Source: a virus
Lineage: Duplodnaviria > Caudoviricetes
Direction: 5' to 3' (one strand)
DNA: 56,445 nt
IMG/VR virus record: IMGVR_UViG_3300031718_000013
Span: 1-56,445 of that record
Shown here: positions 1,955 to 4,467 of the stretch, piece by piece
Layout of the letters: each line of letters begins with the position of its first letter
How positions within the stretch are numbered: the stretch's first letter is position 1
The notes under the pieces: generated by a model
What the model saw: only the letters and a program-made list of their open reading frames with translations
What the model was told of the DNA's origin: nothing
The model's database searches: none
Program-made: the position numbers and the translations under genes

Positions 1955-2458
1955 AAAATTGGAGTAGAAATTCTGTGCAAGCCAATCCATTCGTTCAATC
2001 CGCTACCAGGTCCGGCGAACTATTTTCCGGCTCGCAATACGATTTTCCTGAGTTTTGCCTACCAACTAGCTGAACAACGTGACGCTGCGGTGATTGTGAT
2101 CGGCGCAAACAAGGATGACTATGACGATTATCCTGACTGCCGACCGGAATACATCAAGGCCATTCAGAATGTCTTCAGGATCGCTTGTCGCCGAAATATT
2201 AGCGTATGGGCACCGTTAATTGGCATGACCAAAGCAGAAGTCGTAGCCGAAGCTGTCAAACTTAGAGTGCCTCTCGAAAAGACAATCAGTTGCTACAAGC
2301 CGCGCGACCGAACGCCATGCGGCACCTGCAACGCCTGTTTACTCCGCAAACGGGCCTACGAAGCAAATGGACTGGAGTTCAAACTGGAACGGTTGGAAGT
2401 CGATTTCGGGGAGTCAAAACCGTGGGAGAAGTTGACGGAGCGAACGGAAAGGGCGTAA
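1955..2458 (+). pseudogene. queC: 5'-truncated QueC-like (7-cyano-7-deazaguanine synthase) gene
   Basis: Frame reads YFPARNTIFLS...IGANKDD..YPDCRPEY...APLIGMTKAEVV...TISCY...CGTCNAC; in-frame TGA at 1928-1930 and no SGGxDS ATP-binding motif upstream. Confidence 0.75.
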
Positions 2459-2550
2459 GACAAGTTCACCGATGGTGATGCCGGCAAACTACACGGTGAT
2501 TCGCTTTACGTGGGTGCTCGGGACGGGGCGGCCGGTGCTGAAATACTGAG

Positions 2551-2628
2551 ATGATCCTGAGAGGCGATGCGAGGTCGATACCGCTGGCCGATGGCTGCGT
2601 GCAGACCTGCGTGACGAGTCCGCCGTAT
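2551..2628 (+). CDS. DNA methyltransferase, resident 5' segment (MILRGDARSIPLADGCVQTCVTSPPY)
   Basis: Typical beta-class N4C/N6A MTase N-terminus ending in motif IV SPPY; same frame as the segment starting at 3271. Confidence 0.85.
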
Positions 2629-2664
2629 CTCGAAGATGACGCTATTACACGTAGGGTGGCAGAG

Positions 2665-3141
2665 CTAAATTCCGACGTGATTCAGCGACTTTGCCTGCTG
2701 GTATCGAGCTTCCATGCGATTGCTCAGGTCGAGCGAACGCACAGATGCGCCGACATGACCGCGGCCTTTGGCGATGCGTTGTTTGGCGGATGTGGTCTTG
2801 AGCGCGCGCAAGGCGATGCAGTTGATGGCTTGGCTGCGCTTGATTCGCAGGAAGGGAATAAGCGCGCGAAGAACCGTGACCGCGCGCTTGTCGGTGACTC
2901 CCCACGTCCACAGTTCGCGACCATTGGGCGCGCTCGGCTTCGCTTTGCCCAGCTTGCCGCCGAATACTTCTACAAACAGGTCGAGCGCTTGCGGAGTTAC
3001 CTGCCGAATGTGGACGCGCTCGCTGTAGGTTGCCTGCGTCGAATTTTTGAGAACGCGCACGGCGTAAGTATTTTTCTTGATTCCGATGGTGCCGTCCGAG
3101 TCGAGGACGCCAGCCAGATACGCAAGGTCGATTTTCTTCAT
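2665..3141 (-). CDS. Single-motif LAGLIDADG homing endonuclease (158 aa), antisense to the MTase
   Basis: MKKIDLAYLAGVLDSDGTIGI helix, ..VHIRQ.., FGGKL, W.W.V, LIPFLRIKRSQA. Confidence 0.9.
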   Translation of the reverse strand: MKKIDLAYLAGVLDSDGTIGIKKNTYAVRVLKNSTQATYSERVHIRQVTPQALDLFVEVFGGKLGKAKPSAPNGRELWTWGVTDKRAVTVLRALIPFLRIKRSQAINCIALRALKTTSAKQRIAKGRGHVGASVRSLDLSNRMEARYQQAKSLNHVGI

Positions 3142-3148
3142 GTCGCGC

Positions 3149-3177
3149 ATACTACCAGATGGGGGCGACGTGATAAA
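3149..3177 (-). promoter_or_regulatory. Promoter of the LAGLIDADG gene (extended -10, leaderless)
   Basis: Minus strand TTTATC-17 nt-TAGTAT with TG upstream of the -10; ATG at 3141 is 7 nt downstream. Confidence 0.55.
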
Positions 3178-3188
3178 GGGGGTGAAGG

Positions 3189-3269
3189 ATGATAATTCGA
3201 GCAGATGCGCGAAACATCCCATTGGCGGACTCGTCGGTTCAAACCGTAGTAACGAGTCCGCCTTATTGA
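3189..3269 (+). CDS. Replacement MTase N-terminus carried by the cassette ([26 protein letters not shown])
   Basis: 20/26 aa identical to 2551-2628; purine-rich RBS AAGGGGGTGAAGG; ends TAT TGA C. Confidence 0.8.
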
Positions 3270-3270
3270 C

Positions 3271-4467
3271 TGGGGCCTGCGCGACTACGGACTATCGCCC
3301 TTGATTTGGGGCGGGAGCATCGGTTGCGCGCACGAATGGAACGAATCGGTCTCGCGCGAAGGATTCATTTCGAAAACGCGCTGGCAGCATACGACGAACG
3401 GGCGCGGGGAGGCTCAGCCGGACGAAAAGCGGTTGCGGACGTCGACCACACGCGAGATGAGGCCCGAGGCTTGGGGCCAGGTCAGTCAGGGATCAGTCTG
3501 CGGTGACTGCGGGGCGTGGCGCGGGAACTTCGGTCTTGAACCAACACCGGAACTGTACGTTCAGCACGCGGTCGAGATTTTCAGGGAAGTGCGGCGGGTG
3601 CTGCTGAATGACGGGACGGTGTGGCTGAATCTGGGGGATTCCTACAGCGGCGGAAACAAGGGGAACTCGGGACCGCTGAGACCGGGCGATAAGCAGGCGA
3701 CCAATTCCGGCTCGCACGATACCCGCCGGCGCGACAGCGGGAATCTGACGCCGGCGCGCAATGGCGGCTCGGGCCTTGAGTCGAAGCAGCTAGTTGGACT
3801 GCCGTGGCGGGTGGCGTTCGCGCTTCAAGCCGATGGTTGGTATTTGCGGTCGGACATCATCTATTCGAAACCGAACCCGATGCCCGAGTCAGTTCAAGAT
3901 CGGCCTACTCGATCCCATGAATACCTCTTTCTGCTTTCCAAGAACCCGCGCTACTACTACGACGCGCGCGCCATCATGGAACCGGCCAGCGAGAGTACGC
4001 ACGCGAGAATCGCGCAACCGAGGATTCTTTCGCAGATGGGTGGCGATAAAGACTATGGCCAGGAATCAAATCGGTCGTGTCGAAAGGCGCTAACGAACCT
4101 CGCCTTGCGGGCGCGCGGCGTTACACCCAAAGCCGAACTGGGAACCATCGGGGTCGTGAGGAACAATCCAGACTTTCAGAAAGCGACCGCCGACATAGTG
4201 CTCGAGCGCAACAAGCGATCAGTCTGGACGATAAACGGCCAGCCAACGCCCGAAGCCCACTTCGCCGTATTTCCCGAGAAGCTGGTCGAGCCTTGTGTGC
4301 TTGCTGGCTCGCGCGCGGGCGACCTTGTTCTGGATCCGTTTCTTGGCTCGGGAACGACAGGTCGCGTGGCAGAGAGATTGGGCCGACGCTGGATCGGACT
4401 CGAGCTTTCGGCGCCCTACATCGAAATCGCGCGCAATCGAACCGCGCAACAGGGACTCGGACTCTGA
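3271..4467 (+). CDS. DNA methyltransferase, 3' segment (beta-class N4C/N6A)
   Basis: [45 protein letters not shown], motif [12 protein letters not shown]. Confidence 0.92.

Follow-up and report, generated by a model that had tools for sequence, protein, structure and literature searches.

The complete virus record IMGVR_UViG_3300031718_000013 (Caudoviricetes; 56,445 bp with terminal repeats), which is referred to in its whole length as the window, contains a DNA methyltransferase (MTase) gene that is interrupted by a candidate homing cassette with a LAGLIDADG nuclease gene, a second MTase start and a tiny insert containing a stop codon. The MTase gene opens on the plus strand at position 2551 (MILRGDARSIPLADGCVQTCVTSPPY) and is broken off after the Tyr codon at 2628. 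Its first 26 codons (2551–2628), which end in SPPY with TAT, constitute the resident 5′ end and are called the relic or copy 1 in the following. The cassette comprises 642 nucleotides (nt) from 2629 to 3270, and its boundaries agree with the pattern of the family described below. It splits the gene at catalytic motif IV (SPPY|WGLRDY), exactly where the original prediction, which preceded this analysis, had located it. A tail of 36 nt (2629–2664; 38 nt had been given originally) leads from the relic to the gene of the nuclease, which is encoded antisense on the minus strand (2665–3150, 161 amino acids (aa), stop codon TAG at 2665–2667, ATG at 3148–3150); the open reading frame (ORF) as called extends to 3222. 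A spacer of 38 nt separates the nuclease ORF from the replacement MTase 5′ end (copy 2, 26 codons, 3189–3266, plus strand) and ends in the Shine-Dalgarno-like purine run AAAGGGGGTGAAGG (3175–3188, plus strand) directly 5′ of the ATG of copy 2, in agreement with the new ribosome-binding site that had been proposed. The mini-insert TGAC (3267–3270, plus strand), consisting of the stop TGA and a C, stands between SPPY and WGLRDY. The MTase body with WGLRDY, motif I and a final TGA stop codon occupies 3271–4467 on the same strand. A promoter belonging to the nuclease gene had been claimed as well, and a consensus scan of the minus strand between 2300 and 3400 detected no promoter-like site.

The MTase body is a member of the N6_N4_Mtase family (PF01555, Pfam E 5.3e-41) and of the beta class, with SPPY in its N-terminal part and motif I near the C-terminus. 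The first canonical start codon within the body is TTG 3301. Copies 1 and 2 are identical at 20/26 aa and 50/78 nt. Since an N-terminus profile derived from relatives recognises both (E 4e-9 for copy 1 and 7e-10 for copy 2), the duplication of the MTase start is not a matter of chance. Copy 2 is indeed recoded as had been stated, with G/C-ending codons at 12/26 positions versus 20/26 in copy 1. The original prediction makes no mention of the TGA (3267–3269), which follows directly on the TAT of copy 2; the next C brings the distance to WGLRDY to 4 nt. Copy 2 and the body therefore differ in frame, copy 2 being −1 to the body and the body +1 to copy 2 (the 642 nt include the TGAC). As written, copy 2 encodes a peptide of only 26 aa under standard decoding. 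An RNA hairpin with an 11-bp stem is predicted at 3224–3262 on the plus strand (ΔG −28.7 kcal/mol, z −4.39). The codons for T-S-P-P form its 3′ arm, and a single nucleotide separates the end of the hairpin from the Tyr codon.

The identification of the antisense gene as a LAGLIDADG nuclease was borne out by its motif, its homologues, a match to I-MsoI and a structure model. The protein contains the motif LAYLAGVLDSDG, the LAGLIDADG helix with a conserved acidic residue at its end, and D17, D19 and G20 do not vary across an alignment of 32 homologues. Altogether, it has 158 homologues, which are mostly ∼158 aa long, and the closest relatives were P0002 (84%) and P0003 (80%); a called N-terminal extension of P0003 suggests the same layout there. 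A Pfam search with the nuclease ORF yielded no match, and I-MsoI was matched by sequence with E 6e-7. In the structure model (pLDDT, the predicted local distance difference test, 89.9), the fold follows the order α-β-β-α-β-β-α in one copy of ∼160 aa, and the best Foldseek matches were I-CreI variants (E 4e-9, TM score 0.72). The enzyme is a single-motif LAGLIDADG protein that presumably acts as a homodimer. The PHROG label 'HNH endonuclease' was rejected, being contradicted by the modelled I-CreI-like fold. The nuclease is the sole member of its family in the genome.

Loci of the same kind were searched with the alignment of the 32 homologues, which led to 15 viral loci, 50 metagenome loci and one genome locus in a Blastocatellia metagenome-assembled genome (MAG), whereas a scan of viral contigs with the single nuclease protein had found none. 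A homologous MTase directly adjoins the nuclease in 11/15 viral loci, and there the nuclease lies on either strand, always 5′ of the MTase gene. Beyond the nuclease and on the strand of the MTase, the N-terminus profile revealed a second N-terminal copy in 20/43 loci, which reaches SPP or SPPY in 12. Together with two further loci with a relic of the MTase start (L048 and L057), at least 22 loci, with the nuclease in either orientation, show the duplicated N-terminus flanking the nuclease that the original prediction had envisaged, and dozens of related contigs share the architecture. Where the nuclease is antisense, its stop codon mostly abuts the SPP(Y) of the relic directly, the 36-nt tail of the window being an exception. 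Relic and replacement share 54–71% of their DNA sequence. The recoding of the replacement start is general, since G/C-ending codons are fewer there than in the relic in 10/10 loci.

The mobility of the cassette is best seen in pairs of relatives. Between L009 and L010, identity is ∼0.4 to the left of the cassette, 0.75–0.97 over nuclease and replacement start and 0.42–0.53 just past the junction; measured by parts, the nuclease (0.90) and the replacement start (0.88) of this pair exceed the body (0.63). L021 and L023 show the same, with 0.99 for the nuclease, 1.00 for the replacement start and 0.87 for the body. In these relatives of the window's cassette, the element is accordingly more alike between genomes than its flanks, as is typical for homing elements. 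The site is also polymorphic for presence and absence: cassettes sit at the same codon boundary of a conserved gene, and 80 related viral MTase loci have no match to the nuclease family. As judged by these sequence comparisons, the mobile unit comprises the nuclease gene, the ribosome-binding site, the replacement first 26 codons and the stop-containing mini-insert, and the resident 5′ end persists beyond the nuclease as a relic. We hold this architecture with high confidence, and the evidence for homing into the motif IV site is good.

Several of the loci depart from the common layout. In three sense-strand cases (L004 3920–4459, L007 3947–4471 and L050 105–650), relic and nuclease form one continuous reading frame, and translation of the nuclease may begin there at the original start of the methylase. 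Truncated nuclease remnants (24–86 aa matched) were seen beside the MTases of L015 (4001–4072), L066, L065 and L063/L067, some of which retain the mini-insert. L067 is located on a 174-kb contig of the Blastocatellia MAG; this contig is possibly a prophage and might hint at the host.

The motif IV junction could be read in 50 nuclease-linked loci (43 + 7), the remaining 17/67 being unreadable (short contigs, other contexts). Between 1 and 9 extra nt were present at the SPP/Y/W codon boundary in 39/50 of these junctions (33/42 distinct ones), and 11 were intact. As controls, 80 viral MTase loci were picked by similarity to the body alone, eight of which had no readable junction. In the other 72, 71/73 junctions were intact and 2/73 had an insert, while none of the 80 loci had a match to the nuclease family. 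The association of insert and nuclease reaches a Fisher p of ∼1e-18 with duplicates removed, a figure that is inflated by the kinship of the sequences. Because inserts were found in 39/50 nuclease-linked versus 2/73 nuclease-free junctions, resistance to the nuclease is more likely to come from the mini-insert than from the altered codons, to which it had originally been ascribed.

A stop codon in the frame of the replacement start occurs in 22/23 distinct insert strings, and all three stop codons are represented. The 4-nt types consist of a stop and a C, namely (extra nucleotides in brackets) TAY[TGAC]TGG/TAT in the window, L022, L024, L042, L035 and L058, TAY[TAAC]TGG in L006/L044 and L047, and TAT[TAGC]TGG in L033. 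Six extra nt are found as TAC TGG[TAG TGG] in eight loci (with TAA in L041) and as CCN[TAG CCR]TAY in five loci. Variants of UGG-stop-spacer-UGG with 7, 8, 9 and 9 extra nt are present in L037, L038, L039 and L057, respectively. The remaining types are TAT[TAG]TGG with 3 nt (L018), the 5-nt types of L003, L015/L066, L049 and L031, and TAC TTT[C] with a single extra nucleotide (L009, L010, L059 and L060). Identical or synonymous codons flank the stop (UGG-stop-UGG, CCN-stop-CCR) in every type of 3n, 7, 8 or 9 nt except L018 and L002. We infer that the inserts are tandem duplications of 3–6 nt (TACTGG, CCATAC, CGTAC, TACT or CTGG) with one stop-making change. Two inserts stand in nuclease-free genes, TAC TGG[TGA TGA]GGC in L081 (∼2430–2450) and TAT[TGAC]TGG in L091 (∼2490–2510). 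Neither a nuclease nor a relic was found within 900 nt upstream of them, and their N-terminal frames are open apart from the insert. Both resemble 'hit and run' remnants.

The nuclease probably cuts at the Tyr codon, since the relics stop behind either PP or TAY and a peak of palindromic symmetry (0.454) is centred on this codon. The symmetry is ambiguous, however, as it reaches a slightly higher second maximum (0.50) 9 nt further downstream. Single-motif enzymes of the I-CreI/I-MsoI type cut pseudo-palindromic sites of ∼22 bp and produce 4-nt 3′ overhangs. The empty site of the window would read ...CCGTAT|TGG... and not contain the TAC that was given originally. According to the mechanism that we propose, the nuclease would cut empty alleles around the Tyr codon, and a 4-nt stagger NTAC would be compatible with the relic ends. 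Repair would then copy the cassette, with relic and body serving as homology arms. The replacement start joined to the body would rebuild the target, and the mini-insert (TGAC) would separate its half-sites and render the carrier immune. Some MTase would still be produced: when the P site of the ribosome is occupied by UAU and its A site by the weak stop UGA-C, the hairpin re-forming behind the ribosome could assist the skipping of TGAC. Ribosomes would either move by +4 and resume at UGG, which would restore the wild-type SPPYWGLRDY, or shift by +1 to produce SPPY-D-WGLRDY. Within the 4-nt class, a +4 hop and a +1 shift at the weak stop and C are equally plausible, the latter inserting Asp, Asn or Ser. 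That nuclease, replacement start and mini-insert move as one homing cassette and that the MTase is made by a short hop or a +1 shift is the reading we prefer, with our confidence in it evenly balanced. A bolder proposal is offered tentatively, and we lean slightly against it ourselves: the mini-inserts may constitute a natural family of programmed short ribosomal hops, in which 4–9 nt with a stop are passed over, together with a class of +1 slips; they would have originated in small duplications at the nuclease's cut site, the cost that the cassette pays for its self-immunity, and in the window a hairpin-driven +4 hop from UAU to UGG may yield the wild-type enzyme.

Several observations favour a continued function of the MTase by translation across the insert. 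The stop is almost universal even among in-frame inserts, in which one would seldom arise by chance, and the matched codons around it have the form of synthetic stop-hops; the normal use of TGA and the absence of tRNA genes in this phage point the same way. Past the insert, the body frame is open to its natural end or to the end of the contig in 31/34 loci, and of the three broken bodies two (L002 and L031) also depart from the pattern of matched codons or spacing. The replacement starts are open and have start codons in 40/43 loci, with purine runs before most of them, and the ratio of nonsynonymous to synonymous substitution rates (dN/dS) was 0.11–0.19 for the replacement starts of the four best pairs. 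The 51 nt 5′ of the insert had a mean fold z of −1.31 (n=28) compared to −0.18 in nuclease-free genes (n=67; p 5e-4).

Other observations weigh against translation across the insert. The hairpin is strong in only about half of the loci, and at least 8/11 pairs in the register of the window were formed in 6/28; a single conserved hairpin register was therefore dropped as a general feature. The take-off codon UAU and the landing triplet GAC of the window match at 2/3 positions, TAGC in L033 gives a landing match at 1/3 positions, and the UUU-C class (L009, L010, L059 and L060) has no stop at all. Matched codons can arise from tandem duplications of 3–6 nt at the cut site and are thus not independent proof of hopping. 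The inserts could also spread into diverged genes by short gene conversion, so that shared inserts need not mean long vertical descent; this weakens the dN/dS argument, which is based on a replacement start of only 25 codons. In addition, the sequences are related and the p-values overstate their independence.

The strongest competitor is a gene drive by knock-out. It accepts cassette and mini-insert as described and takes the MTase to be dead in carriers: homing would outpace purging, occupied genes would be young, and the stops would abort a useless or harmful product. The 26-aa peptide that standard decoding predicts for copy 2 of the window is what it would expect, 3/34 bodies are already broken, and phage orphan methylases are often dispensable according to the sections of Gosselin 2023 (PMC9957025) that deal with them. 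The pairs in which nuclease and start are much closer than the bodies (L021/L023, L009/L010) speak for it, too, and against a functional MTase, as they fit repeated fresh invasions of intact genes. However, a dead gene does not explain why 22/23 insert types, among them all in-frame ones, contain a stop, or why the frameshifting types have one immediately, and the extra UGG or CCN codon that is retained in the 7-, 8- and 9-nt types is not accounted for. Nor is it explained why the replacement start has retained its start codon and purine run and shows a low dN/dS, or why RNA structure is in excess just upstream of the insert, and inserts persist in the two nuclease-free genes with otherwise open N-terminal frames (L081, L091). 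We regard the knock-out as a serious contender that is nevertheless unlikely. The model of the original prediction, in which the replacement N-terminus is fused in frame and resists cleavage through synonymous recoding alone, is highly improbable to us. It can draw on the 11/50 nuclease-linked junctions that are intact and in frame (e.g. L004, L005, L007, L008 and L048), for which it may hold, and on the decrease of G/C-ending codons in all ten loci compared. For the window, it is refuted by the TGA and the 4-nt gap between start and body, and most relatives have an insert as well. What stands of it is a splicing-free cassette with a ribosome-binding site and a recoded replacement 5′ end; the joining in frame does not, and any 'repair' of the gene depends on ribosomes skipping the insert.

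Removal of the 642-nt block in the manner of an intron or intein, with copy 1 rejoined to the body, deserves even less credence. Deletion of 2629–3270 would yield an uninterrupted, well-conserved MTase, 642 being 3 x 214. Yet the block length is a multiple of three in only 4/11 loci with a full relic, as predicted by chance, and the multiple in the window is thus no hint of excision. Relics are truncated in many loci, the ends of the block are unlike those of a group II intron at both sides, and an Rfam scan of 2000–4000 gave no group I or II intron but a single chance match to a lncRNA (E 0.52). An intein is impossible with a nuclease on the opposite strand, and the sense-frame product of 2551–3192, inspected for a Hint domain, had no Pfam match. 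A chimera of two strains or a sequencing error has practically negligible probability. The window is indeed a metagenome assembly, probably from a soil sample, but a separate assembly of the probable source run gave an identical contig of 56,348 nt at a depth of 21, the same architecture is present in dozens of contigs from other samples, and other long genes of the genome are intact. Three further explanations for translation past the insert were discarded. A suppressor tRNA or an altered genetic code conflicts with a tRNA gene search of the phage that found none, with the presence of all three stops among the inserts and with the normal use of all three stop codons in this phage, where long genes elsewhere are intact and TGA ends 41/76 long ORFs including the MTase itself. 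A split enzyme with re-initiation would need a start, and no ATG, GTG or TTG occurs in the body frame near the junction. For a prfB-like slip, tRNA-Tyr re-pairs poorly on AUU, and this idea was retained only as a shifty-stop variant.

Our preferred reading, the homing cassette with translation across its insert, has its nearest parallel in mobA and gene 60 of phage T4. There, an insert shields the carrier from its own nuclease and ribosomes skip a gap of 50 nt, as laid out in the parts of Manning & Atkins (10.1101/2022.08.31.505936) that concern this system and cite Bonocora et al. 2011. Both systems combine a homing nuclease and a short insert that move together, the insert lying in a conserved region of the target gene. 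In the account of T4, a stop or hungry codon opens the gap, take-off and landing codons are matched and a stem-loop lies 5′ of the gap; a stop right after the take-off codon is found here as well, since TAT is followed by TGA and 22/23 insert types contain a stop, and so is mRNA structure 5′ of the gap, though not in every locus. Some relatives of the T4 system are described as having lost the nuclease and kept the insert, like L081 and L091 here. The differences are a LAGLIDADG instead of an HNH nuclease, an MTase instead of a topoisomerase as target and a gap of 1–9 nt instead of 50 nt. Furthermore, the split proteins have no added tails here, and a whole replacement 5′ end is supplied while the old end becomes a relic. 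With no sequence homology to the T4 element, the window's cassette is to be seen as its analogue and not as a member, and bypassing would apply to it by analogy. In the excerpted preprint of Wills et al., 5′ stem-loops are thought to push bypassing ribosomes forward, and the 11-bp stem of the window recalls these structures.

Synthetic 'stop-hops' in E. coli (Weiss et al. 1987, in the form cited in PMC5009743) have matched codons on both sides of a stop, 9 nt being read as one amino acid. UGG-UAG-UGG and CCA-UAG-CCA of the relatives are of exactly this form. The synthetic sites are artificial and of low efficiency according to this summary, and the site of the window is of the 4-nt type with an imperfect match. 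As of 2016, no natural in-frame stop-hop was known according to the relevant part of PMC5009743. Mobile ORFs of fungal mitochondria with a duplicated C-terminus, reported for atp6 of Allomyces and for atp6, atp9, cox2 and nad3 of Glomus in the passages on them in PMC3630166, likewise combine an endonuclease ORF with a foreign copy of the displaced gene end and leave the native end as a diverged relic (64–81% there, 54–71% here). They represent a mirror image, because in a phage and not a mitochondrion, the 5′ end with its ribosome-binding site is replaced here and not the 3′ end; unlike them, the regenerated target would need a mini-insert here. The insertion of the free-standing homing endonuclease gene mobE in nrdA of phage Aeh1 also manages without intron and intein in a conserved enzyme gene, as far as Manning & Atkins describe it. 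Its halves are made separately and then assemble, whereas here the downstream part lacks its own start codon.

A LAGLIDADG domain in C5-methylases of actinophages is mentioned for Gordonia phage Ailee and Mycobacterium phage DotProduct in the corresponding section of Gosselin et al. 2023 (PMC9957025). The respective loci (L148, 2101–3975, and L149, 1601–3592) contain distant relatives of the nuclease with 32–33% identity inside the C5-methylase genes, just after the ENV motif, with GGFPCQDVS and ENV motifs both visible. The interrupted gene is annotated as a two-piece coding sequence in Ailee and as one ORF in DotProduct, and no Rfam intron model matched either locus. They resemble the present cassette as nucleases in phage DNA methylase genes with no Rfam intron, but methylase family and insertion site differ, and both were excluded as members of this family. 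A literature search of incomplete coverage returned no description of such a cassette or of natural stop-hops in MTases.

Homing endonucleases usually leave their host genes functional by residing in introns or inteins or between genes. The family described here would add a third route in phages, in which a spare gene start is brought along and a tiny insert breaks the rebuilt target. In kind, the element is probably a homing cassette with an immunity insert and probable translational recoding, and the LAGLIDADG nuclease and the replacement 5′ end appear to be its novel traits. If ribosomes truly skip the inserts, dozens of natural and diverse stop-hops would be at hand, which were formerly available only in synthetic constructs, and the natural variation in hairpin, stop context and codon match would allow mechanistic studies. 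Gene callers will treat such MTases as truncated or broken, with consequences for the prediction of methylation and restriction evasion in phages. The nucleases may further serve as a source of new I-CreI-like specificities with a target that can be deduced.

Some minor observations concern the window itself. The frame of the relic is open across the whole antisense nuclease gene (2551–3192, 213 codons) and ends with the TGA at 3190–3192, which overlaps the ATG of the replacement start (ATGA, 3189–3192) and would permit translational coupling. In L047, the relic frame continues into the MTase body. The open frame over the nuclease gene may be a GC-rich shadow ORF. Just upstream of the MTase, a QueC-like gene (2012–2458) matches Pfam positions 89–209 of 210 only. 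The N-terminal part, which holds the ATP-binding loop, is not present, and nothing similar to it was found elsewhere in the genome; this gene is possibly a fragment.

Among the relatives, the start of the nuclease in L013 (3–530, reverse-complemented locus) is opposite a C-terminal MTase portion of just 78 aa (query aa 339–416), where the contig ends, which suggests another insertion site or a rearrangement. Extra segments of ∼250–500 nt interrupt the MTase bodies near motif I or in the middle of the gene in L005, L010 (5484–5743) and L003 (5039–5538), and these could be further insertions. The segment in L005 measures ∼250 nt and lies between query aa 373 and 379, accompanied by a change of frame.

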